Part shown: one piece after another, positions 14,956 through 28,640 of the stretch | Numbering within the stretch: the first letter of the stretch is position 1 | How the letters are laid out: every line of letters starts with the position of its first letter | From: Chloroflexota bacterium | GTDB lineage: Bacteria > Chloroflexota > Limnocylindria > Limnocylindrales > CSP1-4 | Direction: 5' to 3' | Length of the DNA stretch: 64,000 bases | Assembly: GCA_016191345.1 (NCBI GenBank) | Contig: JACPOU010000001.1 | Coordinates: 339 to 64,338, forward strand | Made by a program: the position numbers and the translations under genes | Notes under the pieces: model-generated | Databases searched by the model: none | Seen by the model: only the letters and a program-made list of their open reading frames with translations | What the model was told of the DNA's origin: nothing

Positions 14956-15846
14956 ATGCCGGCCGGCACCCTGCCCTTCGTCTCGCGCCTCGCCCGCTTC
15001 GAGCGGGTCGGGTCGACGAACGACGTCGTCCGCGGCTGGCTCGCCGACGGCCTCGACGAGGTCTGCGTGGCGGTCGCCGACGAGCAGACGGCGGGCCGCG
15101 GCCGCGAGGGCCGGACCTGGACGGCGCGACCGGGCGCGGCGCTCCTCCTGTCCGCCGGCTTCCGGCCCGCCTGGATTGCGCCGGACCGGGCCTGGCGGGT
15201 GGCCGGGATCGTGGCCCTCGCGATGGCCGATGCCGCCGAGGATGCGGCGGGCCTGGGCGGCGGCACGATCCGGCTGAAGTGGCCGAACGACCTCGTGATC
15301 GTGACCGCGGGTCCCGGCGCCTCGCTCCGGGCGGATGACCCGGACGCGGCCGGGGCGCTCGCCCGCCTCGCCGCCCCGCTGGAGATCCGGAAGCTCGCCG
15401 GGATCCTCGGCGAGACCGAGGGCCTCGGCACGGACGACCCGCGGGTCGTGGTCGGGATCGGGATCAACGCCGACTGGGACGCGCGCGACTTCCCGGCAGC
15501 GCTGGCCGGGTCGATGACCTCGCTCCGGGACGCATCCGGCGGCCGGCCCATCGATCGCGACGCCCTCCTCGACGGGTTCCTCGCCCGCCTCGAGACGCGG
15601 CTCGCCGCGCTCCGGGAGGGGCGCTTCGACGTCGCCGAGTGGACGGCCCGCCAGGTGACCACCGGCCACCTCGTCCGGCTCCACGGCCACGGCGGGGACG
15701 AGTCGCTCGTCCGCGCGATCGGGGTCGACGGGGCGTCCGGGGCCCTCGTCGTGGAGCCGCTCGACGGCGATGGGCGCGCGCGCGAACGCGCCGTCATGGC
15801 CGGCGAGGTCGTCCACGTCCGGCTCGCCTCCGCGGGCGTGGTGTAA
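14956..15846 (+). CDS. birA: Biotin--[acetyl-CoA-carboxylase] ligase (no obvious N-terminal HTH repressor domain)
   Basis: This is the last 297 aa of ORF 12562..15846, starting at ATG 14956. It carries the BirA signature GRGREGRTW and KWPNDL. Confidence 0.85.
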   Translation: MPAGTLPFVSRLARFERVGSTNDVVRGWLADGLDEVCVAVADEQTAGRGREGRTWTARPGAALLLSAGFRPAWIAPDRAWRVAGIVALAMADAAEDAAGLGGGTIRLKWPNDLVIVTAGPGASLRADDPDAAGALARLAAPLEIRKLAGILGETEGLGTDDPRVVVGIGINADWDARDFPAALAGSMTSLRDASGGRPIDRDALLDGFLARLETRLAALREGRFDVAEWTARQVTTGHLVRLHGHGGDESLVRAIGVDGASGALVVEPLDGDGRARERAVMAGEVVHVRLASAGVV

Positions 15847-15850
15847 CGCG

Positions 15851-16498
15851 GTGGCCCGGCCGGTGTTGAGGAGAGCAGGCGCGGCGACGGACGCCGTGCC
15901 CCGACTGGCGCACCTGGATCGCGACCGGCCGCTCGTGGCGGCCGCCCAGCGAGATCCCGGCACATTCGACGCCCTCTATCGGCGGTACCTGGCCCCGGTG
16001 TACAGCTACGCCTACTACGAGCTCGGCAACCACCACGCCGCGGAGGACGCGACGGAGCGGACGTTCCTGGCCGCGCTCGCCAACCTCCACCGCTTCGACG
16101 AGCGCGCACGCCCCGAGGACGGGGAGGGCGCGTCGACGTTCAAGGTGTGGCTGTTCCGGATCGCCCGGAACGTGATCGCCAACGACCGCCGGACCGCGCG
16201 CCGCCATCCCGCGGCGGTCCTCGACGACGCGACCGCGGCGATCGTCGCCGACCCGCTGGACGTGGAGCGCGATGCCGTCCGCCGCGAGGAGGCCGCGGAC
16301 GCGTGGCGGGCCGTCGGGCGGCTGCCGGGCGACCGGCGGCGGGCGCTCGTCCTTCGCTTCGTCGACGAGATGAGCACCGCGGAGATCGCCGGCGTCCTCG
16401 GTCGATCCGAGGGGGCCGTCCGGGTCCTCATCCACCGCGCCCTGCGGAGCGTCGCCCGGGAGCTTGACCCGCGCTCCCCGAACGCGCCGCGCCGATGA
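15851..16498 (+). CDS. ECF-type RNA polymerase sigma factor
   Basis: Sigma-70 region 2 reads FDALYRRYLAPVYSYAYY...AEDATERTF and region 4 reads EMSTAEIAGVLGRSEGAVRVLIHRA. The start is uncertain: in-frame GTGs at 15851 and 15863, while ATG 15770 would overlap birA. Confidence 0.8.
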   Translation: MARPVLRRAGAATDAVPRLAHLDRDRPLVAAAQRDPGTFDALYRRYLAPVYSYAYYELGNHHAAEDATERTFLAALANLHRFDERARPEDGEGASTFKVWLFRIARNVIANDRRTARRHPAAVLDDATAAIVADPLDVERDAVRREEAADAWRAVGRLPGDRRRALVLRFVDEMSTAEIAGVLGRSEGAVRVLIHRALRSVARELDPRSPNAPRR

Positions 16499-17100
16499 CG
16501 CTCCCCGGCCGGGACGTCGCCGAGGTCGAGGCGCTCGTCACCGACCGCTACCTCGATTCGCTCCTCGCCGCGGCGGACCTGCCGTGGATCGGGCTGGTGC
16601 CGGACGGGAGCGGGGCCGCCAGCGAGCGCGGCGGCTTCGGCGGGCCGCGGCGCGACCGCGGGGCGTCGAGAGATCCGCGGAGCCGCCTCGATGCCGGGGT
16701 GCGCCTCGCCTCGAGCCGCCTGACCCTCGACCTGCCGCGCTTCCATCCCTCGTTCCGCTTCGAGGAGCGGCTCGCCGTCCGGCTCGCCGAGGCGGCTGCC
16801 GCCATGCGCCTCCCCGCCGCCGCCGGCGCCGAGGGCTCCGTGGCCGTCGTGCCGATCCACCAGTCGCGGGCTGCCGCGCCGGCAGTCCTGGACCCGTACG
16901 CCTTCGACCCCCTCGCCGACCCGGAGCCGGAGCCCGAGGCCGCCACGTCCCGGCCGCTGCTCATCGGCGGCGCGGTGGCGGCGTCCGCGATCAGCCTGGC
17001 CGGGGCCGCCTGGGTCGCCTGGCGCCGCTCCCGGACTGCATCCTCGCCGATGGCCCGGGCCGTGCGCGCCGCGCACGCGCTCCGCGAGCGGCCGGCGTAG
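16495..17100 (+). CDS. Hypothetical tail-anchored membrane protein; possible cognate anti-sigma factor
   Basis: Its ATG overlaps the sigma-factor stop (ATGA). A single C-terminal TM helix reads LLIGGAVAASAISLAGAAWVAW. No zf-HC2 motif is seen, so the anti-sigma call rests on position only. Confidence 0.45.
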   Translation: MTLPGRDVAEVEALVTDRYLDSLLAAADLPWIGLVPDGSGAASERGGFGGPRRDRGASRDPRSRLDAGVRLASSRLTLDLPRFHPSFRFEERLAVRLAEAAAAMRLPAAAGAEGSVAVVPIHQSRAAAPAVLDPYAFDPLADPEPEPEAATSRPLLIGGAVAASAISLAGAAWVAWRRSRTASSPMARAVRAAHALRERPA

Positions 17101-17111
17101 GGGAGCCGACG

Positions 17112-18170
17112 ATGCCGATCAAGCTGCCCTCGTTCCGGCCCCGCAAGGACGCTCACCCGCCGGACCTCTGGACGAAGTGCCCGACCTGCTCGGAGATGCT
17201 GTTCAACAAGCAGCTCGACAAGGCGGACCGGGTCTGCCCGAACTGCGGCCACCACTTCCGCCTGTCGGCCGGGGCTCGCCTGGACCTCCTCCTGGACCAC
17301 GGCACGTTCGCGGAGCTGGACGCCGGCCTCCAGAGCCTGGACCCGCTCGGGTTCGTGGACCAGAAGCCGTACCCGGACCGGGTTGCCGCCGCGCAGCTCG
17401 CGACGGGGCTCCGTGACGCCGCCGTCCGGGGCACCGGGCTGATCGAGGGTCACCGCGTCTCGATCTGCGCCATGGACTTCGCGTTCATGGGCGGCTCCAT
17501 GGGGGCCGTCGTCGGCGAGAAGGTCACCCGTGCCGCGGAGCAGGCCCTCGAGGAGCGGATCCCGCTCATCGTCGTTTCGGCGTCCGGCGGGGCGCGGATG
17601 CAGGAGGGGACCCTCGCCCTCATGCAGCTCGCGAAGACCTGCGCCGCCCTCGACCGGCTCCGGGTCGCCGGCGTGCCCTACATCTCGATCATGAGCGACC
17701 CGACCACCGGCGGCGTGTTCGCCTCCTATGCCGTCCTCGGCGACGTGAACCTTGCCGAGCCGAATGCGCTCATCGGGTTCGCCGGCGCCCGCGTGACCGC
17801 GGGCACGATCGCCCAGGAGCTGCCGCCCGGCTTCCAGCGCGCGGAGTTCCTCTTCGAGCACGGGTTCGTCGACCGCGTGGTCACGCGCCGGGACCTCCGC
17901 CACGAGGTCGCCCTGCTCCTCCGCTACCTGGTCCCGTTGGAGGGCGCCGGCGGCGGCAACGGCAACGGGGCGATGAGCGAGAGCCGCCCGTCGTTCGACC
18001 CCATCGGCTTCCTGTCGTCGCTCGCCGAGAAGGTGGTCCCGGACCTGGGCCCCGGGGACGGGTTGGACGCACCGGAATCGCCACGGACCTCGCGCCCCGC
18101 GCGCACGGCGCGCACCGCCGGCGACGCCCCGGCAGCCCGCAGAACCGGACGGAGGACGGCCGATGGTTGA
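17112..18170 (+). CDS. accD: Acetyl-CoA carboxylase carboxyltransferase subunit beta
   Basis: The internal ATG at 17112 gives MPIKL. The N-terminal Zn-ribbon CPTCSEML...CPNCGHH is present and the carboxyltransferase core resembles AccD. A C-terminal low-complexity tail follows. Confidence 0.9.
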   Translation: MPIKLPSFRPRKDAHPPDLWTKCPTCSEMLFNKQLDKADRVCPNCGHHFRLSAGARLDLLLDHGTFAELDAGLQSLDPLGFVDQKPYPDRVAAAQLATGLRDAAVRGTGLIEGHRVSICAMDFAFMGGSMGAVVGEKVTRAAEQALEERIPLIVVSASGGARMQEGTLALMQLAKTCAALDRLRVAGVPYISIMSDPTTGGVFASYAVLGDVNLAEPNALIGFAGARVTAGTIAQELPPGFQRAEFLFEHGFVDRVVTRRDLRHEVALLLRYLVPLEGAGGGNGNGAMSESRPSFDPIGFLSSLAEKVVPDLGPGDGLDAPESPRTSRPARTARTAGDAPAARRTGRRTADG

Positions 18171-19164
18171 CCGCCTGCTCGGCCGGGGCCGCGAGGCTGC
18201 GCCTGCGGAGCCCGTGGATGCGAAGAGCGCTGTCTGGAACCGCGTCCAGCTGGCCCGCAATATCCGGCGGCCGCGAACCCTGGACATCCTCGGCGAGATC
18301 GCCGATGAGGTCGTGGAGCTGCACGGCGACCGGGCGTTCGGCGACGACGCGGCGATGGTCGCCGGATTCGCCCGGATCGAGGGCCGGCGGATCGCCTTCG
18401 TGGGCCAGCAGAAGGGCGCCGACACGGACGAGAACATCCGGCGCAACTTCGGGATGCCCCATCCCGAGGGCTATCGCAAGGCGATGCGGGTCATGGAGCT
18501 CGCGGAGCGGTTCGGGCTGCCGATCGTCAGCTTCGTGGACGTCCCGGGCGCCCACCCCGGCCCCGAATCCGAGGAGCGCGGCATCGCCGATTCGATCGCC
18601 CGCTCCATCGCCCTCATGACCCGCCTGCGGACGCCGATCGTGGCGATCATCACGGGCGAAGGCGGCTCCGGCGGCGCGCTCGCGATCGCGGTCGGCGACG
18701 TCGTCGTCGCTCTCGAGAACGCGGTCTACTCCGTCATCAGCCCGGAGGGCTGCGCCTCGATCCTCTGGCGGACCGGCGACGAGGCCCCGACCGCGGCCCT
18801 CGCGATGCGGATGTCCGCGGACGACCAGCTCGCCCTCGGCGTCATCGACATCGTGGTCCCCGAGCCGGGGGAGGGGGCCCACGCGGATCCCGCCGAGACG
18901 GCGCGCCGGCTGCGGGCCGTGATCCTCGCCGAGGTGGACCGCCTCGCCCGGATCGACCGCGACGAGCTCGTCGAGGCGCGCTACCGGCGCTACCGGGCGC
19001 TGGGCGCCTACACTGAGGTCGCCGCGCCGGCGGTCGTTCCGCCGCCCAACCGGGGGCTGGGCGATCGGCTGCGCGACCTGCTCGATCCGACCCGCTGGTC
19101 GGTCGGGGTCCCGAGCGCCTGGCCGTCGCGCCGCGACGAGCCACCCGCCCGAGAGGAGGTCTGA
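18163..19164 (+). CDS. accA: Acetyl-CoA carboxylase carboxyltransferase subunit alpha
   Basis: Contains RPRTLDIL, GQQKG, NFGMPHPEGYRKA and ITGEGGSGGALA. It overlaps accD by 8 nt. Confidence 0.9.
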   Translation: MVDRLLGRGREAAPAEPVDAKSAVWNRVQLARNIRRPRTLDILGEIADEVVELHGDRAFGDDAAMVAGFARIEGRRIAFVGQQKGADTDENIRRNFGMPHPEGYRKAMRVMELAERFGLPIVSFVDVPGAHPGPESEERGIADSIARSIALMTRLRTPIVAIITGEGGSGGALAIAVGDVVVALENAVYSVISPEGCASILWRTGDEAPTAALAMRMSADDQLALGVIDIVVPEPGEGAHADPAETARRLRAVILAEVDRLARIDRDELVEARYRRYRALGAYTEVAAPAVVPPPNRGLGDRLRDLLDPTRWSVGVPSAWPSRRDEPPAREEV

Positions 19165-19167
19165 CGG

Positions 19168-19824
19168 GTGCCCGACGAGCGCACGACCCGCGACGACGAG
19201 GCCCGCTCCGCCGACCACGCCGGCATCGAGCGGCTGGCCGACGTCCTGGTTCCCGCCCTCGTCGCGAAGCTCGGCACCCTGAACGTCGGCGAGCTCGAGG
19301 TCCGCGAGGGCGAGTGGCGCATCCGTCTCCGCCGTCCCGCGGGCATGGGGCCCACCTACGGTCGCCGGGCCACGGACCGGCCGTCACGCTCCCATCCGGG
19401 CCACGAGCAGCACGGCCATGCGCCGGGCGCCCTGGAGGCGCATCGCGCGACAGCCGGACGTCCGGCGACCCTTGCCGCCGCCAGTGCCAACGGCGCGACC
19501 GCCGCCATGAACGGCGCCGCCGGTCCCGTCCTCGCCGCGGTCGGGCCCGGTCGCAGCGGAGCGGACGGCGCCGGCACGCCCGATCGGGCCCAGATCGCGA
19601 CCTCGCCCGCGGTCGGCGTCTTCCAGCCCGGCCCGAAGGCGGTCGGCGGGACGCGGGTCCGGGCCGGCGATCGCCTGGGCGTCGTGGACATGCTCGGCGT
19701 GCCCCAGGAGGTCGTCGCGCCCGCGGACGCGATCGTGGTCGGCGTCATCGTGGACGCCGGCACGGCCGTGGAGTACGGCCAGGAGCTGATCCACCTCGAG
19801 CCCGCTCCGGCGGAGGCTCGCTGA
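19168..19824 (+). CDS. BCCP-like biotinyl/lipoyl-domain protein lacking the biotin-accepting lysine
   Basis: The N-terminal segment (LNVGELEVREGEWRIRLRRP) and the C-terminal hairpin domain are BCCP-like. At the position of E-A-M-K-M it reads V-D-M-L-G (GDRLGVVDMLGVPQEVVAP), and no lysine occurs anywhere in the hairpin. The GTG start is 3 nt after the accA stop, and its TGA shares one base with the accC ATG. Confidence 0.75.
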   Translation: MPDERTTRDDEARSADHAGIERLADVLVPALVAKLGTLNVGELEVREGEWRIRLRRPAGMGPTYGRRATDRPSRSHPGHEQHGHAPGALEAHRATAGRPATLAAASANGATAAMNGAAGPVLAAVGPGRSGADGAGTPDRAQIATSPAVGVFQPGPKAVGGTRVRAGDRLGVVDMLGVPQEVVAPADAIVVGVIVDAGTAVEYGQELIHLEPAPAEAR

Positions 19825-21194
19825 TGTTCCGCAAGATCCTCATCGCCAACCGCGGCGAGATCGCCCTGCGGATCCTCCGCGCCTGCCGGACCCTCGGCGT
19901 CGAGGCCGTCGTCGCCTACAGCGAGGCGGATCGCGACAGCCTCCCCGTCCAGCTCGCCGAAGAGGCGATCTGCATCGGCCCGGCCGACGCGCGGCGCTCG
20001 TACCTCTCGGCCCCGGCGGTCATCTCCGCGGCGATCGTGACCGGCTCTGATGCCATCCACCCCGGCTACGGCTTCCTGTCCGAGGACGAGACCTTCGCCG
20101 AGGTGGTCCGGGCCCACGACCTGACGTTCATCGGCCCGCCGCCCGAGGTCCTCGACCGGTTCGCCTCGAAGGAGGGGACCCGCCGCCTCCTCGGCGACTA
20201 CGGACTCCCGACGATCCCGGGGTCGCGGGGCATGCTCCGCGACGACGAGCACGCCCTCGAGGAGGCCGAGCGGATCGGCTACCCGGTCCTCATCAAGCCC
20301 TCGGCCGGCGGCGGCGGCAAGGGGATGCGGATGGTCCGCACCCCGCGCGAGCTCGAATCGGCCATCAAGGTCTGCCGCTCCGAGGCGAAGTCGGCGTTCG
20401 GCGACGACTCCCTGTACCTCGAGAAGTGGCTGGAGGACAACCGCCACGTGGAGGTCCAGGTCGCGGTCGATCGCTACGGCCACGGCGTGCATCTCGGCGA
20501 GCGCGACTGCTCCGTCCAGCGTCGCCACCAGAAGATCCTCGAGGAGGCCCCGACCCCGGCGCTCTCGCCGGCCGCCCGTGCCGAACTCTGCGAGCTGGCC
20601 GTCCGGGCCGTCGTCGAGGCCGGCTACGAGAACGTGGGCACCCTCGAGTTCCTCGTCGACGCGAAGGGCGACTTCTACTTCATCGAGATCAACTGCCGGA
20701 TCCAGGTGGAGCACCCCGTGACGGAGATGCTGACCGGCATCGACCTCGTCGCGACCCAGATCCGGATCGCGGCGGGGGAGCCGCTCGGCTTCAGCCAGGC
20801 CGACGTCCGGCCGCGCGGCCATGCCATCGAGTTCCGGATCAACGCCGAGGACCCCGAGCACGAGTTCCGGCCCGGGGCCGGGGTCGTGGAGGGCTACCAC
20901 GCCCCGGGCGGGCCGGGCATCCGGATGGACTCGCACCTCTACCCCGGCTACGAGGTCCCGCCGTTCTACGACTCCCTGCTCGGCAAGCTCGTGGCCTGGG
21001 GGCCGGACCGCGAGACGGCGATCGCCCGGGGCCGGGCGGCCCTCGACGAGCTCGTCGTCGACGGCATCGTCACGAACGTCGAGATCCACAAGGCCCTCCT
21101 CGCGAACGAGATGTTCCTCGAGGGCCGGATGACGACGAACCTCCTCGACCGGGTCGGCAGCGCGGCGTTCCTCGCCGCCGCGGCCCGGACCTGA
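19824..21194 (+). CDS. accC: Acetyl-CoA carboxylase biotin carboxylase subunit
   Basis: Starts MFRKILIANRGEIALRI. The ATP-grasp core includes GYPVLIKPSAGGGGKGMR and EINCRIQVEHPVTE. Confidence 0.93.
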   Translation: MFRKILIANRGEIALRILRACRTLGVEAVVAYSEADRDSLPVQLAEEAICIGPADARRSYLSAPAVISAAIVTGSDAIHPGYGFLSEDETFAEVVRAHDLTFIGPPPEVLDRFASKEGTRRLLGDYGLPTIPGSRGMLRDDEHALEEAERIGYPVLIKPSAGGGGKGMRMVRTPRELESAIKVCRSEAKSAFGDDSLYLEKWLEDNRHVEVQVAVDRYGHGVHLGERDCSVQRRHQKILEEAPTPALSPAARAELCELAVRAVVEAGYENVGTLEFLVDAKGDFYFIEINCRIQVEHPVTEMLTGIDLVATQIRIAAGEPLGFSQADVRPRGHAIEFRINAEDPEHEFRPGAGVVEGYHAPGGPGIRMDSHLYPGYEVPPFYDSLLGKLVAWGPDRETAIARGRAALDELVVDGIVTNVEIHKALLANEMFLEGRMTTNLLDRVGSAAFLAAAART

Positions 21195-21231: not shown

Positions 21232-21687
21232 GTGACCGAGACGATCCACACGACCCGCGAGATCGAGGCGCTCATCCCGCATCGATGGCCGATCCTCATG
21301 GTCGACCGGATCATCGAATACGACGCCGAGGCGAAGCGGATCGTCGGGATCAAGGGCATCACCGCGACGGAGTGGTGGGCCCAGGGCCACTTCCCGGGCC
21401 TGCCGGTCCTGCCGGGCGTCCTCCAGGTGGAGGCGCTCGCCCAGACGATGGCCGTCTACGTCGCGAAGCAGCCGGGCTTCGGCGAGCGGATCGGCCTGTT
21501 CGCGGGCATCGACGACTGCCGCTTCAAGCGGGTCGTCGTCCCGGGCGACACGCTCCGCCTCGAGATCACGATGGAGAAGCTGGGCAGCCGCTTCGGCAAG
21601 GCGAAGGGCGTGGCGAGCGTCGACGGGCAGGTCGCGTGTGAAGCAACGCTGTCCTTCATCATCCCGCCGGAAGGCGTCCTCCGATGA
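21232..21687 (+). CDS. fabZ: 3-hydroxyacyl-[ACP] dehydratase
   Basis: Hot-dog fold signature: HRWPILMVDRI...GHFPGLPVLPGVLQVEALAQ. Confidence 0.9.
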   Translation: MTETIHTTREIEALIPHRWPILMVDRIIEYDAEAKRIVGIKGITATEWWAQGHFPGLPVLPGVLQVEALAQTMAVYVAKQPGFGERIGLFAGIDDCRFKRVVVPGDTLRLEITMEKLGSRFGKAKGVASVDGQVACEATLSFIIPPEGVLR

Positions 21688-22430
21688 CCGCCAAGATCGC
21701 GGTGCTCAGCGACATCCATGGCAACGTCATCGCCCTCGAGGCGGTCCGCAAGGCGATCGGCAGGGAGAAGCCGGATGCGGTGCTGATCGCGGGCGACCTC
21801 GCCATGAACGGCCACGATCCCGCCGGCACGATCGACCTGCTGCGGCGCATGGAGGGCGACGGCGCGATCGTGGTCCAGGGCAACACCGACGTCGCGGTCG
21901 CGGACTTCGACTACGCGGCGGCCTTCCCGTGGCTGACGGACGGTGTCCCGGACGCGATGCAGGATGCCGCGGAGTGGGCCCACGACGCGCTCGAGAACGA
22001 GCGGCTGGACTGGCTGCGCCGCCTGCCCGCCGAGCGGCGGATCCGGCTCGAGGACACGCTCGTGCTCGTGACCCATGCCTCGCCGGGTTCGCAGACCGCG
22101 GGCTTCGATCGCGACCTCGATGCGTCCGTCACCCTCGACCGGCTGTCGGGCACGGATGCCCGGCTCATCTGCTGCGGCCATACCCACATTCCCGAGGTCC
22201 GCGACTTCGGCTGGAAGCAGATCGTCAACGCCGGCAGTGCCGGCTACGTCTTCGACGGCGACCCCACCGCTTCGTGGGCCCTCGTCACGCTCGACGGCGA
22301 GTCGGTGACCGCGGAGATCCGCCGGACCGAGTTCGACGCGCTGGCCGCCGCGAACGCGATCTCGGCCCGCGGCCTCCCCGGCGACGTCTACCGCGCCGCG
22401 ACGGTGCGCACGGGGAAGCTCGTCCGTTGA
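21684..22430 (+). CDS. Metallophosphoesterase family protein (YfcE-like calcineurin-fold phosphodiesterase)
   Basis: Motifs are AVLSDIHGN, GDLAMNG, GNTD and CCGHTHIP. Its ATG overlaps the fabZ stop (ATGA), and its TGA overlaps the fabF TTG (TTGA). Confidence 0.8.
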   Translation: MTAKIAVLSDIHGNVIALEAVRKAIGREKPDAVLIAGDLAMNGHDPAGTIDLLRRMEGDGAIVVQGNTDVAVADFDYAAAFPWLTDGVPDAMQDAAEWAHDALENERLDWLRRLPAERRIRLEDTLVLVTHASPGSQTAGFDRDLDASVTLDRLSGTDARLICCGHTHIPEVRDFGWKQIVNAGSAGYVFDGDPTASWALVTLDGESVTAEIRRTEFDALAAANAISARGLPGDVYRAATVRTGKLVR

Positions 22431-23680
22431 CCGCGCCGCGCGTCGTCGTCACCGGGATGGGCGCGCTGTCGGCGCTCGGCAACGACGTCGCCTCCACGTG
22501 GGCGGGGCTGGTCGCCGGCCGGTCCGGGATCCGGACGATCGAGGCGTTCGACCCCGCCCGGATCGATTCCCGGATGGCCGGCGAGGTGCGCGACTTCGAT
22601 GCCAGCGGCGTCCTCGACCGCAAGGACATGCGCCGGACCGACCGCTACATCCAGTTCGGGCTGGTCGCCGCGCGCGAGGCGCTCGACGAGGCCGGGTTCC
22701 CGGGGCGGATGGACGGCGAGCTCGCGGAGCGGACCGGGGTCATCGTGGGCTCGGGCCTCGGCGGCGTGTCCACGCTCTTCGAGAACGTCCTGCTCATGGC
22801 CGAGCGCGGCCCGGGCCGGATCAGCCCGTTCTTCATCCCGATGGGCATCGCCAACGTCGCCGCGGGCCAGATCGCGATCCAGTTCGGGCCGCTCGGGCCG
22901 AACTGGGCGACGGTCTCCGCGTGCGCCACGGGCGCCCATGCGATCGGCGAGGCGTGGGAGACGATCCGCCGCGGCGACGCGGACGTGATGCTCGCCGGTG
23001 GCGTCGAGGCCGGCATCCACGAGGCGGTCGTCGGCGGCTTCGCCTCGATGAAGGCCCTCTCCACCCGGAACGACGATCCGGCGGCAGCCTCGCGCCCGTT
23101 CGACGAGGGCCGCGACGGCTTCGTCATCGGCGAGGGCGCCGGCGTCCTCGTCCTCGAGTCGCTCGAGCACGCCACGGACCGCGGCGCGGAGCCGCTCGGG
23201 GAGCTGGTCGGCTACGGCGCCACCGCCGACGCCTCGCACATCACCCTGCCGGCGCCCGGTGGGATCGGCGCGGTCCGGGCGGCGCGGCGGGCGCTCGAGA
23301 AGGCCGGGCTGCGGCCGGAGGACGTCGACCACGTGAACGCCCACGCCACGTCCACGCCCGAGGGCGATCGGGCCGAGCTGCAGGCGATCCACACGATCTT
23401 CGGGGACCACGCGCCGGCCGTCGCCGTCACCGCCAACAAGTCGATGCTCGGGCACACCCTCGGGGCGGCCGGGGCCCTCGAGGCCATCGCGGTGATCCAG
23501 GCGCTCCGGACCGGGACGGTGCCGCCCACGATCAACCTGGAGCGGCCCGATCCGGCGGGCGACGGCCTGGACCTGACCCCGGGGCTGGCCACGCGGCGCG
23601 AGATGCGCATCGGGCTCAGCAACTCGTTCGGGTTCGGCGGCCAGAACGCCGCCCTGATCCTCCGGCGGTGGGACGGATGA
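22427..23680 (+). CDS. fabF: Beta-ketoacyl-[ACP] synthase II
   Basis: Contains RVVVTGMGALSALG, the active-site region ATVSACATGAHAIG, plus NAHATSTPEGD and SNSFGFGGQNAAL. The TTG start at 22427 is inferred because no ATG or GTG lies upstream of the conserved N-terminus. Confidence 0.9.
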   Translation: MTAPRVVVTGMGALSALGNDVASTWAGLVAGRSGIRTIEAFDPARIDSRMAGEVRDFDASGVLDRKDMRRTDRYIQFGLVAAREALDEAGFPGRMDGELAERTGVIVGSGLGGVSTLFENVLLMAERGPGRISPFFIPMGIANVAAGQIAIQFGPLGPNWATVSACATGAHAIGEAWETIRRGDADVMLAGGVEAGIHEAVVGGFASMKALSTRNDDPAAASRPFDEGRDGFVIGEGAGVLVLESLEHATDRGAEPLGELVGYGATADASHITLPAPGGIGAVRAARRALEKAGLRPEDVDHVNAHATSTPEGDRAELQAIHTIFGDHAPAVAVTANKSMLGHTLGAAGALEAIAVIQALRTGTVPPTINLERPDPAGDGLDLTPGLATRREMRIGLSNSFGFGGQNAALILRRWDG

Positions 23681-24288
23681 GCGACGGCGAGCCCGAGATG
23701 GACCCGGATCCCGCCATGGACCCGAGTGCGCCGGAGCCGGGGGCTCTCGCGCCCGAGGCCGGGGCACTCGCGCCCGGCGACCCTTCGGAGGAGCCTGCCC
23801 CGCCCCTGACCGATCCGGGCGACATCGCCCTCCTGGCGCTGATCGACCGGCTCGCCGGCCTCCTCGACCGGTCCGAGCTCTCCGAGCTCGAGGTCCAGGT
23901 CGGCGGGACCGGGATCGTCCTGCGAAAGCCTGTCGCGATCGCGCCCGTCGTCCCCGCGTCCACGGCGGCCGTGGCCCCGGCAGCAGGGCAGGGGAGCGCC
24001 GGCGCGCCCGGCGCTGAGGCGTCGGCGGAGGCGCCGGCCGCGCCATCGAAGCCGTCCGTGAAGGCGCCGCTGACGGGGATCTGGTACGGCTCCCCGTCGC
24101 CGGGCTCGGCGCCGTACGTCACGGTCGGCGGCGAGGTCGCCGCCGGGCAGGTCATCGGGCTCATCGAGGCGATGAAGCTCTTCAACGAGATCAAGAGCGA
24201 CCTGTCCGGCCGCGTCGTCCGGATCCACGCGGAGCCAGGGAAGCTCGTCAAGGCCAGGCAGCCGCTCATCGAGGTCGAACCGCTGTGA
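23677..24288 (+). CDS. accB: Acetyl-CoA carboxylase biotin carboxyl carrier protein (canonical, with biotinyl lysine)
   Basis: The C-terminal domain carries the canonical motif GLIEAMKLFNEIKSD. A Pro/Ala-rich linker is present. Its ATG overlaps the fabF stop. Confidence 0.85.
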   Translation: MSDGEPEMDPDPAMDPSAPEPGALAPEAGALAPGDPSEEPAPPLTDPGDIALLALIDRLAGLLDRSELSELEVQVGGTGIVLRKPVAIAPVVPASTAAVAPAAGQGSAGAPGAEASAEAPAAPSKPSVKAPLTGIWYGSPSPGSAPYVTVGGEVAAGQVIGLIEAMKLFNEIKSDLSGRVVRIHAEPGKLVKARQPLIEVEPL

Positions 24289-25502
24289 CCAACCCGGGCA
24301 CCGCGCCGCGCGCGCACATCACCGGCTGGGGGCGCTACGTCCCGTCGCAGGTCCTCACCAATGCCGACCTCGAGCGGATGGTGGACACGAACGACGAATG
24401 GATCGTGTCGCGGACCGGGATCCGCGAGCGACGCGTGGCCGCCGCCGACGAGACGACGGCCTCGATGGCCGCCGTCGCGAGCCTCCGGGCGATCCGGACC
24501 GCCGGCATCGACCCGGACGAGATCGACCTCATCCTCCTCGCGACCCTGACGCCCGACTACTGGATGCCCTCGACGGCGGCGCTCGTCAAGGAGGCGATCG
24601 GCAACACGCGGGCCGCGGCGATGGACGTGGCCGCCGCCTGCTCCGGGTTCGTCTATGCCTTCTCGACGGCCCAGGCGTACATCGCGTCGGGGCTCGCGAA
24701 GCACGTCCTCGTGATCGGCGCGGAGCTGCTCACCCGCTTCCTCGACTACACCGACCGGAGCACCTGCATCCTCTTCGGCGACGGCGCCGGGGCGGTCGTC
24801 GTGTCCGCCTCGAACGAACCCGGCGGAACCCTGGGCGTGGAGTTGACCACCGAGCCCCAGGGCGCCTACATGATCTGGCTTCCCGCCGGCGGGGCCAAGA
24901 GCCCGCCCTCGAGCGAGACGATCGCCCGAGGCGAGCACTACATCCGGATGGAAGGCCGGGAGACGTACCGCTTCGCCACCCGCACGCTCGCCTCGACCGC
25001 GCTGGCCTCGGTGCGGAAGGCCGGCCTGGAACCGTCCGACGTCTCGCTGTTCATCCCGCACCAGGCGAACATCCGGATCATCGAGGCCGTCGCCAAGGGC
25101 CTCGACCTGCCGATGGAGCGGATGTTCGTGAACCTGGACCGCTACGGGAACACGTCCGCCGCGTCCGTGCCCATCGCCCTCGCCGAGGCGGTCAACGAGG
25201 GCCGCGTGCAGGTCGGCGACAACATCTGCATCGTCGCCTTCGGCGCGGGCTTCACGTCGGGCGCGGCCACGATCGAGTGGACCGCGGACCCGGCCCGCGG
25301 CGTGGCCGGCGACGTGGCCGTCGGGCCGGCCGATGTCCACGTCCGGCTGCCGGTCGACTGGGACTCGGTGGACCCGATCCCGCCGGCCCTCGCCGAGCTC
25401 ATGGCGCGGCCGGGCCTCGTCAACCCGCCACTGGACGATGTGGTCCCGGGGGAGCCGCCGGCCGAACCCGCGGTCCCGGCGGCCTCGACCTCCGGACGCT
25501 GA
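24285..25502 (+). CDS. fabH: Beta-ketoacyl-[ACP] synthase III with a ~75-aa C-terminal extension
   Basis: Contains ITGWGRYVP, NDEWIVSRTGIRERR, the active-site AAACSGFVYA, plus HQANIRI and GNTSAASVP. Extra residues follow the usual C-terminus (...AGFTSGAATIEW). The GTG start overlaps the accB stop. Confidence 0.88.
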   Translation: MTNPGTAPRAHITGWGRYVPSQVLTNADLERMVDTNDEWIVSRTGIRERRVAAADETTASMAAVASLRAIRTAGIDPDEIDLILLATLTPDYWMPSTAALVKEAIGNTRAAAMDVAAACSGFVYAFSTAQAYIASGLAKHVLVIGAELLTRFLDYTDRSTCILFGDGAGAVVVSASNEPGGTLGVELTTEPQGAYMIWLPAGGAKSPPSSETIARGEHYIRMEGRETYRFATRTLASTALASVRKAGLEPSDVSLFIPHQANIRIIEAVAKGLDLPMERMFVNLDRYGNTSAASVPIALAEAVNEGRVQVGDNICIVAFGAGFTSGAATIEWTADPARGVAGDVAVGPADVHVRLPVDWDSVDPIPPALAELMARPGLVNPPLDDVVPGEPPAEPAVPAASTSGR

Positions 25503-25515
25503 GCGGAGGGCAGGC

Positions 25516-27858
25516 GTGGTCGAGCCGGGGGGCTCGAGCGGCGCGGCCGCTGAACCGGGGGACCGCCTCGACTTCCTGATGGGCGCCGTCCTCGTCATCG
25601 CCTGCGTCCTCGTCATCCAGGCGCTCGGCACCTACGCGTTCTCGGTGAGCGCGCGCGTCCGGATCGCGGGCACTGTCGTGACCCTCGGCATGCTGCTCCT
25701 CTGGGGAGCGGTCATGATCCTGCGGCCAACCTATCGGCCCCGAACGGTGCTGGCGGGCCCGATCGTCGCCGCGACGCTGGCCTTCGGAGCCGCGGTGCTC
25801 GCGTCGCAGCGGCCCCGGTTGAGTCTCGAACCCGCGCTCATCGGTGTCGCCGCCGCCCTCACGCTCCTGATGCTGACCGCCCTGCTCAGGATCACGACGA
25901 TCCGGCGCCTGGTCGGCAGCATGGTGATGCTGATCCCGGTGGTGATCTCGGTCGTGTACGTCGCGGCGGTCTTCGCGGAGTGGGTCCGGTGGTGGACCCT
26001 GGTCGGCCGGCTCACGGCCCCGCCCCTGCGCCCGTCGTTCGTGGACCTGAGCCTTGGCTCCCCGAACCTCGTCGCGACGTACCTGATCCTCTTCGCCCCG
26101 CTGGGCGCGGCCAGCGCGGCCCGTCGATTCGGGACGCGCGCGGCGGTCGCCTCCCTGCTGCTGGCCGGCCTCGCTCTGTTCCTGACCGGGAGTCGCAGCG
26201 GCTACCTGGCCGCAGCGGTCGTCGCGCTGCTCGCCGTCATCGTCACCTTCGCGAGCCTGGGGCCTGCCACCCGGGAGTACATGTCACGAACCGGCCGGCG
26301 CGGCATCGGCCTCGCCGCGGCCGCCGGCCTCGTCGTCGCCGTCCTGGGCTTCGTCGCGGCACCGGGCCTGCTGGCGCGGCTGTCGTTTGCCGGGGCCGAC
26401 TACCGGTCGTGGTTCTGGCGGAGCGCGTTCGAGCTGTTCCAGGGGTCCCCGCTCGTGGGCACCGGGCCCGGGACGTGGGCGCAGCTCAAGCTGGCAACCG
26501 TCCTGCCCACCGAAATCAACGCCGTCGTTCCACATGCCCACAGCCTGGTCTTCCAGACCCTTGCGGAGGTCGGCCTCCTGGGCGCTGCCGGGTTGGTCGT
26601 GCTCGCCGCGGCGGTCGCATTGAGGGCCCGCGCGGTCCATCGGGCCGGTGATCAGTGGGTCCGGCTGGAGGTCGTCGCGGCGTCCTCCGGCCTCGTCGGG
26701 CTGCTTGTACAGCAGGGGACGGACTACCTCATGAACCTGCCAGCCGTCACCCTCTCGGCCGCCCTCCTGATCGCCTGGATCGACGGCTCCGTCGCGAGGC
26801 CCCCACGGCCGGAGGGCCGGATCGCGAGGAGGAGTGCCTGGCTGGCCGTTCCGGCCACGCTCGTGCTCGGCGCCGTCATGGCGGCGGCCGCTCCCACCAT
26901 GCTCCGGATCGGCGATGCGATGCTCCAGGCCAATGGCGCGAGCGAAGCCGCGGCCTCGGGGAACTGGAGCGCGGCCCTCGACGGCTACGACCGGGCCGTC
27001 GCCGGTGATCCCGACTTCACGCTGTATCAGATCCAGCGGGGCAACGCGCTCGCGCACCTGGGCCGGGTCGAGGAGGCGCGCGCGGCCTACGCGAGCGTCA
27101 TCGATACCGACCTGCTCCCGGGCAACGTCATCGCCCTCGCGACGCTCGAGATGGAGACCGGGAACTTCTCGCGCTCGGCGGACCTCGCCCGGCTTGCCCT
27201 TCGTCGTGGTCAGCGCGACCCGCTGATCACGTTGAATGCCGGCAGGATCCTTGAAGCGGCGGGCGACATCCAAGCGGCGACGACCGCCTATGCCGCCGCG
27301 ATCCGCGGCGACTTCGCCCTGGCGGCCTCCGCGTACTGGCGCGCACCCGAGCGCGTCGTGCCCCTGAATCGGGTGGTTGCCGAGGCGAGGGCGGAGAGGC
27401 TGGCCGCCGGCGACCTGGCGAGCGCCGCGATCATCTCCGCGTTCGCCGGCCGGATCGAGGAGGCACGCGCGGACGTTGCCACGCTTGTCGATCCGGACAG
27501 CCGGCGGTTCATCGGAGCGCTGATCGAAGGTCTGGCCGGGGACCGCGCCGCGGCCATCGCCGAGCTCACCCGCCGTGTCAAGGCGGATCCGAGCGACTTC
27601 CAGGCGCTCGTCTGGCTCGTGCAGGTGCTCGTCGTCAATGGCGACCCGGACGCGGGTCGCTACGCGGATCAGGCAAGGATCCTGCGCCGCGATGAGGCGA
27701 ACGGCGCGATGCGCGTCATGTCCGTCGTCCCTGCGACGGACGCGGAGCGCAGCCAGGAACCCGGCAGCGGCTATCCCTTCGCCGTGTACGCACGCCTTGG
27801 TCCGCCGGACCCCTGGCCGCCCCAGGTTCTCGTCATCGGCTCCGCCGGACCGTCGTAG
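25516..27858 (+). CDS. Polytopic membrane protein with an O-antigen-ligase/Wzy_C-like core and a C-terminal TPR-like repeat region
   Basis: About 10-12 predicted TM helices are followed by helical Ala-rich repeats of TPR type (AALDGYDRAVAGDPDF..., RAAYASVIDTD...). The start is uncertain: GTG 25516, or the ATG near 25579. Confidence 0.7.
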   Translation: MVEPGGSSGAAAEPGDRLDFLMGAVLVIACVLVIQALGTYAFSVSARVRIAGTVVTLGMLLLWGAVMILRPTYRPRTVLAGPIVAATLAFGAAVLASQRPRLSLEPALIGVAAALTLLMLTALLRITTIRRLVGSMVMLIPVVISVVYVAAVFAEWVRWWTLVGRLTAPPLRPSFVDLSLGSPNLVATYLILFAPLGAASAARRFGTRAAVASLLLAGLALFLTGSRSGYLAAAVVALLAVIVTFASLGPATREYMSRTGRRGIGLAAAAGLVVAVLGFVAAPGLLARLSFAGADYRSWFWRSAFELFQGSPLVGTGPGTWAQLKLATVLPTEINAVVPHAHSLVFQTLAEVGLLGAAGLVVLAAAVALRARAVHRAGDQWVRLEVVAASSGLVGLLVQQGTDYLMNLPAVTLSAALLIAWIDGSVARPPRPEGRIARRSAWLAVPATLVLGAVMAAAAPTMLRIGDAMLQANGASEAAASGNWSAALDGYDRAVAGDPDFTLYQIQRGNALAHLGRVEEARAAYASVIDTDLLPGNVIALATLEMETGNFSRSADLARLALRRGQRDPLITLNAGRILEAAGDIQAATTAYAAAIRGDFALAASAYWRAPERVVPLNRVVAEARAERLAAGDLASAAIISAFAGRIEEARADVATLVDPDSRRFIGALIEGLAGDRAAAIAELTRRVKADPSDFQALVWLVQVLVVNGDPDAGRYADQARILRRDEANGAMRVMSVVPATDAERSQEPGSGYPFAVYARLGPPDPWPPQVLVIGSAGPS

Positions 27859-27890: not shown

Positions 27891-28640
27891 ATGATCGACC
27901 TCACGGGCAGGAGCGCCGTCGTCACGGGCGGTTCACGGGGCATCGGGCGCGCGATCGCCCTGCGGCTCGCGGGCCAGGGCGCCGACGTCACCTTCAGCTA
28001 CCGCGGCAACGCCGCCGCCGCCGAGGAGACCGCCGGCGCGATCCGGGCGCTCGGTCGCCAGGCGCTCGCCGTGCAGGCGGACCACAGCCAGCCGGAGGCG
28101 GGCGACATCGTCGTCAAGGCCGCGCTCGAGGCCTTCGGCAAGGTGGACATCCTCGTCAACAACGCCGGCATCACCCGCGACGACCTCATCATGCGGATGA
28201 GCCTCGAGGCCTGGCAGTCGGTGATCGACACGAACCTGTCCGGCGCCTTCCACGCGATCAAGGCCGTCACCCGGCCAATGCTCAAGGCCAAGGGCGGCCG
28301 GATCATCAACATCACCTCGGTCTCCGGCCAGGCCGGCCAGACGGGCCAGGCGAACTACTCGGCCGCGAAGGCCGGCCTGATCGGCCTGACGAAGGCCACC
28401 GCCCGCGAGCTCGCGTCGCGCGGGATCACCTGCAACGCGGTCGCGCCCGGGTTCGTGCTCACGGAGCTGACCCAGGACCTGGCCCAGAACCTCCAGGACG
28501 AGATCACGGCCCGGACTCCGCTCGGGCGGTTCGGCACGGCGGAAGAGATCGCCAGCGCGGTGGCCTTCCTGGCCAGCGACGAGGCGGGGTACATCACCGG
28601 CCAGGTGCTCGCCGTGGACGGTGGGCTCGTGATGATGTGA
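27891..28640 (+). CDS. fabG: 3-oxoacyl-[ACP] reductase
   Basis: Classical SDR motifs are present: TGGSRGIG, NNAG, and YSAAK with the upstream Ser. Resembles FabG over its full length. Confidence 0.9.
   Translation: MIDLTGRSAVVTGGSRGIGRAIALRLAGQGADVTFSYRGNAAAAEETAGAIRALGRQALAVQADHSQPEAGDIVVKAALEAFGKVDILVNNAGITRDDLIMRMSLEAWQSVIDTNLSGAFHAIKAVTRPMLKAKGGRIINITSVSGQAGQTGQANYSAAKAGLIGLTKATARELASRGITCNAVAPGFVLTELTQDLAQNLQDEITARTPLGRFGTAEEIASAVAFLASDEAGYITGQVLAVDGGLVMM

Follow-up and report, generated by a model that had tools for sequence, protein, structure and literature searches.

A lysine-less biotin carboxyl carrier protein paralogue in the accB slot of the Limnocylindria acc operon, a candidate non-catalytic subunit of acetyl-CoA carboxylase

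The heteromeric acetyl-CoA carboxylase (ACC) of plants and algae contains, beside the biotin carboxyl carrier protein (BCCP), the BADC proteins, which include BADC1 to BADC3 of Arabidopsis and Cre01.g037850 of Chlamydomonas. As described, BADCs are derived from BCCP, have a biotinyl-domain fold and a long disordered region, lack the lysine of the AMKL/AMKM motif, and coexist with a true BCCP. BADCs bind both biotin carboxylase (BC) and BCCP, and their amounts roughly match those of the other subunits (PMC11926652, PMC13585458, PMC12706156); the Chlamydomonas BADC is stoichiometric with the carboxyltransferase (CT) subunits (PMC11926652, PMC13585458). Two models compete, a poisoned complex versus an assembly "glue" (PMC11926652, PMC12706156, PMC13585458). 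So far, non-catalytic BCCP look-alikes of this type have been treated as peculiar to plants, with disagreement over whether they act as a brake or as glue; in the words of a 2025 paper, BADC is "unique to the plant htACCase" (PMC11926652). Here we analyze a 64,000-nucleotide stretch (the window; positions 339 to 64,338, forward strand, of contig JACPOU010000001.1) from a Chloroflexota bacterium of the class Limnocylindria (assembly GCA_016191345.1), in which a gene between accA and accC, here called bccpX, encodes a BCCP paralogue without the biotin-accepting lysine.

Two bacterial systems provide further points of comparison. In Escherichia coli, an alpha/beta/beta motif made up of the first ~30 BCCP residues has been proposed to oligomerise inside the ACC tubes, at their core. 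BCCP is about twice as abundant there as the other subunits, and the N-terminus and zinc domain of AccD contact both BC and BCCP (PMC11160672). Canonical AccB (TIGR00531; E. coli AccB, structures 1bdo and 4hr7) and the bccpX product share an N-terminal alpha/beta/beta module, a Pro/Ala-rich linker, a C-terminal biotinyl barrel, and a gene located immediately upstream of accC; they differ at the hairpin, where EAMKM is replaced by D(M/V)LGV and Lys122 by Gly. The actinobacterial epsilon subunits AccE and PccE are likewise small non-catalytic proteins encoded beside carboxylase genes, and are said to act as "glue" that stimulates holoenzyme assembly (cited in PMC11926652), which is the same logic as that of the model we prefer for bccpX. 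However, their fold is unrelated and not derived from BCCP, and they belong to carboxylases with fused BC and BCCP, not to the four-subunit E. coli type. No description of a lysine-less bacterial BCCP was found in the full-text literature searched, in agreement with an earlier interpretation of the window made from its letters alone (the sequence-only reading), which had supposed such a protein to be uncharacterized in bacteria. That interpretation had placed the gene in the accB slot between accA and accC, and domain matches to both flanking genes bear this out; its coordinates, motif strings, and coupling to accC are also correct.

Three independent alignments—MAFFT with E. coli BCCP, hmmsearch of a family profile against PDB chain 4hr7_B, and hhalign against the Limnocylindria accB family—placed Gly177 of bccpX on Lys122 of E. 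coli BCCP. The segment VDMLGVPQEV, within the hairpin GVVDMLGVPQEV, lies opposite VEAMKMMNQI of E. coli BCCP and IEAMKLFNEI of the canonical accB of the window, so that the replacement of the hairpin Lys by Gly claimed earlier holds in all three. The match to PF00364, to which an alignment had been suggested as a check, scored 17.4 bits and did not reach the gathering score of 22.1. There are only two lysines in the whole protein, K34 and K157; the latter, the sole Lys of the domain, lies outside the hairpin as had been noted, in a shortened thumb region, and is K, R, T, or E among relatives. Gly occupied the biotinyl-Lys position in 441 of 441 family members with a complete C-domain (independent sequences from NCBI, JGI, ENA, and Logan assemblies), reading D/E/N-x-[LI]-G. 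No Lys column was conserved among 316 full-length members, the best being ALIA[K/R]L with 53% K and 45% R; an alternative acceptor was therefore rejected. On the basis of these alignments, bccpX is predicted to be incapable of biotinylation at the canonical site.

The reading that the protein remains a carrier through another residue or cofactor, or that the Gly is an assembly or sequencing artefact, draws on the retained carrier fold and nothing else. Since converting GGC to AAA or AAG takes three substitutions, a single base-calling error is excluded, and the presence of the same Gly in all 441 relatives excludes a local artefact. Together with a ratio of nonsynonymous to synonymous substitution rates (dN/dS) of ~0.3 and an intact fold, these observations led us to reject a sequencing error or pseudogene, and with K157 variable and no Lys conserved we regard continued carriage, like an artefact, as barely credible.

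A canonical BCCP gene is located 4 kb downstream, as the sequence-only reading had it. It carries GLIEAMKLFNEIKSD, the sole match to [EVSA][AVS]MK[LMVIT] in any frame of the window, and its TIGR00531 score was 105 bits. The motif IEAMKLFNEI was present in 47 of 48 accB open reading frames (ORFs) recovered from related loci; the remaining ORF gave no match. Since this accB overlaps fabF and fabH, the live carrier would be expressed in step with the condensing enzymes and not with BC and CT. In comparison, the TIGR00531 match of bccpX spanned model positions 33 to 155 of 156 at 36.3 bits, short of the cutoff of 115.2 required for the family. With no acceptor Lys, a truncated thumb, and a score below the family cutoff, bccpX departs from AccB in three of its defining features and ought not to be annotated as a carrier. 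Genes of its family are nevertheless labeled "biotin carboxyl carrier protein" or "biotin/lipoyl-containing protein" by annotation pipelines; such labels would be functionally wrong, and metabolic reconstructions could count bccpX as a BCCP.

Both BCCP modules claimed for the protein were recovered in an AlphaFold2 model (single chain, 64-sequence alignment) and in alignments to E. coli BCCP and the accB of the window. The N-terminal module was modeled as a helix (residues 5 to 37) and two strands (42 to 47 and 50 to 55) with a predicted local distance difference test score (pLDDT) of 80 to 87. It is 35% identical over 43 amino acids to the N-terminus of the same window's accB and also aligns to the N-terminus of E. 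coli BCCP; L23, P29, A30, L31, G41, E42, W50, R53, L54, and R56 are invariant in alignment A1. A middle stretch from about 57 to 140 is predicted to be disordered (pLDDT, 43 to 54). The C-terminal barrel (about 141 to 212) had a pLDDT of ~97, and its top Foldseek match in the PDB was the E. coli BCCP biotinyl domain 1bdo (TMt, 0.84; root mean square deviation, 1.4 Å over 78 columns). Next came Pyrococcus BCCP, BCCP chains from the E. coli BC-BCCP complex 4hr7, and Arabidopsis BCCP1 (9a87). The model thus indicates that bccpX retains the flattened beta-barrel biotinyl-domain fold. The barrel and the hairpin tip, strictly conserved as D-[VMLC]-L-G-[VI], are the best-conserved parts of the protein. 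By contrast, the ACC-type thumb is truncated, the segment from GxF to GD being six residues shorter than in E. coli BCCP and the window's accB. This shortening fits a non-carrier, because the thumb reportedly matters for the function of the biotinylated carrier (work attributed to Cronan, 2001).

Within the disordered stretch lies a His/Arg-rich motif, YGRRATDRPSRSHPGHEQHGH, in which R66, R67, and D70 are invariant and R74, P77, G78, and H79 are at least 90% conserved. More distant subfamilies lack it and keep only a basic patch. The motif may respond to metals or pH, or may serve as a peptide that binds a partner.

Translation signals at the two ends of bccpX tie it closely to its neighbors. 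Its GTG start lies 8 nucleotides (nt) after a GAGGAGG Shine-Dalgarno sequence and 3 nt after the accA stop, and its TGA stop shares one base with the accC ATG, giving TGATG. The C-terminal ..AEAR of the protein is conserved because the accC GGAGG is embedded in its last codons. Across 75 related loci, the bccpX stop and the accC start overlapped by 1 nt in 46 and by 4 nt in 1, were separated by 1 to 3 nt in 23, and were 8 nt or more apart in 5, so the stop was no more than 4 nt from the accC start, with the accC Shine-Dalgarno sequence inside bccpX, in 70 of the 75. These signals indicate that bccpX is translated from an accD-accA-bccpX-accC message in step with BC and is translationally coupled to accC.

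The same overlap and embedded Shine-Dalgarno sequence, together with the subthreshold BCCP scores, would be expected if bccpX were a relic, an old accB whose Lys disappeared once a second accB had assumed its function, retained only as an ORF that delivers ribosomes to accC. Such a history is very unlikely given that dN/dS is ~0.3 in each domain, that 36 residues do not vary across 64 sequences, and that the fold is modeled at a pLDDT of 97 with an invariant hairpin tip over class-level divergence. The underlying NG86 estimates for bccpX from 47 genomes, which are imprecise at 72% G+C owing to codon bias and dS near saturation, were 0.35 for the N-module, 0.30 for the linker motif, and 0.30 for the C-domain; those for accB from the same genomes were 0.25 and 0.20. 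Purifying selection on bccpX is therefore only slightly weaker than on the true carrier. Identity between bccpX and the accB of the same genome is ~26% in the C-domain, so either the split is old or change afterwards was fast.

A first homologue search returned 3,680 proteins at E ≤ 1e-3, with Gly at the Lys column in all 120 listed. A profile search against 1.84 billion cluster representatives gave 146 clusters (50% identity) below 1e-30 and 453 below 1e-10, with Gly in every listed member whose hairpin was readable, and searches seeded from two divergent subfamilies gave Gly likewise. Divergence within the family is at class level, with identity down to about 40 to 50%. Almost all of the named matches listed were Limnocylindria or unclassified Chloroflexota, and the family appears to be confined to Limnocylindria, judged on those matches, with ~300 clusters at E values from 1e-30 to 1e-10, which may include more distant Lys-less relatives, lying outside them. 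On the matches listed, a spread beyond the class was considered and rejected; records from other phyla were few, and were short or SMAG contigs with the same synteny. Ten records of metagenome-assembled genomes (MAGs) with a Limnocylindria-type syntenic locus (L021, L036, L044, L048, L055, L064, L067, L071, P0324, and P0432) carried such labels, namely Polarisedimenticolia, Patescibacteria, Dormibacterota, Verrucomicrobiia, Deferrimicrobiaceae, Methylomirabilota, Eisenbacteria, and Sulfotelmatobacter; they are probably mis-binned contigs.

The phylogenetic survey that had been recommended extended to gene order. In a scan of one genome per GTDB species, 330 genomes had a relative of bccpX; in the best 80 of these 330, which were inspected, the order birA-sigma-accD-accA-X-accC-fabZ-phosphoesterase-fabF-accB-fabH was kept in 80 of 80, as far as the contig reached. 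A distant subfamily (L081 and L082) showed the full gene order cleanly. At another distant locus (L083), sigma-accD-accA-X-accC was kept and the downstream genes were fragmented on a contig that looks frameshifted.

A partial Mantel test on 32 genomes, with the shared species signal removed, showed that distances among bccpX proteins co-vary with those of accB (r = 0.36, P = 0.0002), accD (r = 0.27, P = 0.006), and accC (r = 0.20, P = 0.02), and no co-variation was seen with fabZ, fabF, fabH, birA, or the phosphoesterase; this mirror-tree signal serves as exploratory support only. It bears on the idea that bccpX acts outside the working enzyme, either through an N-module that autoregulates acc transcription or translation or as an apo-BCCP mimic that titrates BirA or PII. 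The N-terminus of E. coli AccB has been implicated in accBC autoregulation (James and Cronan 2004, as cited in PMC11160672), and birA and an extracytoplasmic function (ECF) sigma factor gene head the conserved cluster. Against this, bccpX co-varies with ACC subunits and not with birA, and its best-conserved parts, the barrel and hairpin tip, would be needless in a purely N-terminal regulator. Furthermore, the catalytic domain of BirA begins at residue 16, which leaves no room for an N-terminal DNA-binding domain and therefore no BirA repressor switch to titrate. We consider a role in controlling expression decidedly improbable.

We instead favor, with a probability of about 0.5, the reading in which bccpX serves as a non-catalytic subunit of ACC, is produced together with BC, and joins the BC-BCCP subcomplex. 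In this proposal, bccpX would descend from BCCP and keep both BCCP contact modules. Its N-terminal alpha/beta/beta module, of the type by which BCCPs oligomerise and keep hold of BC, would let it join the BC-BCCP subcomplex, where it would probably hetero-oligomerise with the true BCCP, whose gene lies between fabF and fabH, and its barrel would dock on the BCCP-binding surface of BC/AccD while delivering no biotin. The net effect would be to build the complex and fix the number of live biotin carriers, a division of labor between structural and catalytic BCCP. A hairpin tip conserved despite the absent Lys fits such a retained contact. Choi-Rhee and Cronan reportedly found in 2003 that formation of the BC-BCCP complex requires the BCCP N-terminus, and Abdel-Hamid and Cronan are said to have found in 2007 that BC binds unbiotinylated BCCP. 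The binding partners of bccpX, and any effect on ACC, be it assembly or attenuation, are inferred from architecture, synteny, and exploratory co-evolution.

The structural facts behind this reading are identical to those expected of an inhibitor. Under the original BADC model, the poisoned complex, bccpX would vie with holo-BCCP for BC and so reduce ACC flux, its binding being tuned by a signal such as pH, a metabolite, or PII, with the His-rich linker motif as a possible sensor. The side chains of the motif's segment HPGHEQHGH titrate near neutral pH, and the motif is conserved at the dN/dS of 0.30 given above. BADCs were first described as negative regulators whose binding to BC depends on pH and ions (PMC12706156, PMC13585458). 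Yet the inhibitor model is now disputed in the plant field, given the embryo lethality of badc2 badc3 mutants and evidence that BADCs act as "glue" (PMC11926652, PMC12706156). Co-translation with the target at 1:1 from a single mRNA would also leave an inhibitor little regulatory range unless its binding were conditional, and the His-rich motif is missing from more distant subfamilies, which keep everything else. Because of the co-translation with BC and the restriction of the His/Arg-rich motif to the window's subfamily, we lean toward a constitutive structural subunit; fixed co-translation favors this somewhat over a switchable inhibitor, which we consider unlikely. The sequence-only reading had described plant BADCs as down-regulators and offered bccpX as a candidate regulator or scaffold; down-regulation is just one of the two models still in contention for plant BADC itself.

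Several points weigh against a constitutive subunit. A protein made 1:1 with BC and occupying BCCP sites could be inhibitory just as well, and a subunit role does not account for the His/Arg-rich linker motif conserved in the window's subfamily. The host organisms are uncultured MAGs, so that bccpX is known from genes alone, and the AlphaFold2 models are of single chains and not of interfaces. In addition, bccpX is somewhat less constrained than accB, on dN/dS values subject to the imprecision noted above, and the co-evolution signal comes from 32 genomes and short proteins, with accB alone surviving Bonferroni correction.

Compared by description, bccpX resembles BADC on every feature that could be read from its sequence, including the missing AMKL/AMKM lysine and the coexistence with a true BCCP in a heteromeric ACC, which makes plant BADCs its closest analogue; it looks like a bacterial counterpart of them. 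It differs in being bacterial, in occupying the accB slot of an acc operon, in its translational coupling to accC, in its shortened thumb, and, in one subfamily, in the His/Arg-rich linker motif. The apparent restriction to Limnocylindria points to a loss of Lys independent of that in BADC, and bccpX is probably not a BADC orthologue. We regard it as a real, robust, and apparently undescribed bacterial variant, with a plausible, hypothetical mechanism. A broader view, that dead-BCCP subunits recur in heteromeric ACC and that Limnocylindria independently evolved an obligatory biotin-free BCCP built into the BC-BCCP core with the live carrier, is one we hold only tentatively.

If that view is true, the long-standing puzzle of why E. 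coli-type ACC contains more BCCP than BC would come down to a structural role of BCCP genetically separable from biotin carriage, and bccpX would represent a natural system in which BCCP's scaffold and carrier functions are separated. It would also offer a simple four-plus-one-subunit bacterial system, with proteins co-expressible in E. coli for reconstitution and cryo-electron microscopy, in which to rebuild the disputed BADC mechanism. A bacterial version, encoded in an operon and conserved throughout a class abundant in soil and freshwater, would make the idea of non-catalytic look-alikes more general and is of interest to specialists on ACC and biotin enzymes.

The features of the locus are collected in Table 1.

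Table 1. Coordinates of bccpX, its parts, and the neighboring genes (positions in the window)
Feature	Position	Strand	Remarks
Aspartate kinase gene		+	Head of the listed plus-strand gene run, directly before birA
birA	14956..15846	+	BPL_LplA_LipB catalytic domain from residue 16; conserved cluster head
ECF sigma factor gene	15770-16498	+	
Small ORF	16495-17100	+	Between ECF sigma factor gene and accD
accD (CT beta)	17112..18170	+	Zn_ribbon_ACC and Carboxyl_trans
accA (CT alpha)	18163..19164	+	PF03255, 372 bits; start overlaps accD end by 8 nt
bccpX (Lys-less BCCP paralogue)	19168..19824	+	218 amino acids; GTG start; TGA stop overlapping accC ATG
N-terminal helix and beta-hairpin module (residues 17-59)	19216..19344	+	AlphaFold2; homologous to BCCP N-terminal alpha/beta/beta module
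Linker motif YGRRATDRPSRSHPGHEQHGH (residues 64-84)	19357..19419	+	Specific to the window's subfamily; predicted disordered, pLDDT ~51
C-terminal biotinyl-domain fold (residues 142-212)	19591..19803	+	Thumb six residues shorter; AlphaFold2 and Foldseek
Gly177 codon GGC	19696..19698	+	Biotinyl-Lys position; hairpin GVVDMLGVPQEV at 19678-19713
GGAGG Shine-Dalgarno for accC and TGATG overlap	19812..19826	+	In last bccpX codons (..AEAR); TGA 19822-19824
accC (BC)	19824..21194	+	Biotin_carb_N, CPSase_L_D2, Biotin_carb_C
fabZ	21232-21687	+	
Metallophosphoesterase gene	21684-22430	+	Between fabZ and fabF
fabF	22427-23680	+	
Canonical accB (BCCP)	23677..24288	+	IEAMKLFNEI, full thumb; overlaps fabF (ATGA) and fabH (GTGA)
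fabH	24285-25502	+	

The plus-strand genes from the aspartate kinase gene through fabH are separated by tiny gaps or overlap, and the G+C content around the locus is 0.71 to 0.75. The nearest relatives of the window's genes are in MAGs named Candidatus Limnocylindrales, Limnocylindria, or Chloroflexota. A promoter and terminator scan from 13 to 27 kb gave no promoters and one terminator-like site, inside fabF and at chance level; the whole window contained no tRNA genes and no Rfam families at the gathering threshold. The metallophosphoesterase gene has 4-nt overlaps on both sides and keeps its position within the fatty acid synthesis cluster in all related loci. Directly upstream of accD (14956-17100), birA, the ECF sigma factor gene, and the small overlapping ORF are kept in essentially all Limnocylindria loci. 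The small ORF possibly encodes an anti-sigma factor, with no Pfam match in relatives, and the arrangement hints that expression of ACC and fatty acid synthesis genes is tied to the ECF sigma factor. Farther downstream, positions 28000 to 56000 have a lower G+C content (0.62 to 0.68, compared with 0.71 to 0.75 elsewhere) and code for a surface-polysaccharide cluster, with GT4 glycosyltransferases, RmlD, a GT10 fucosyltransferase-like protein, a DegT aminotransferase, a Wzt-type ABC ATPase, and a Bac_transf sugar transferase. Two Wzy_C/O-antigen-ligase-like proteins also belong to this cluster, one of them with TPR, encoded at 25579-27858.

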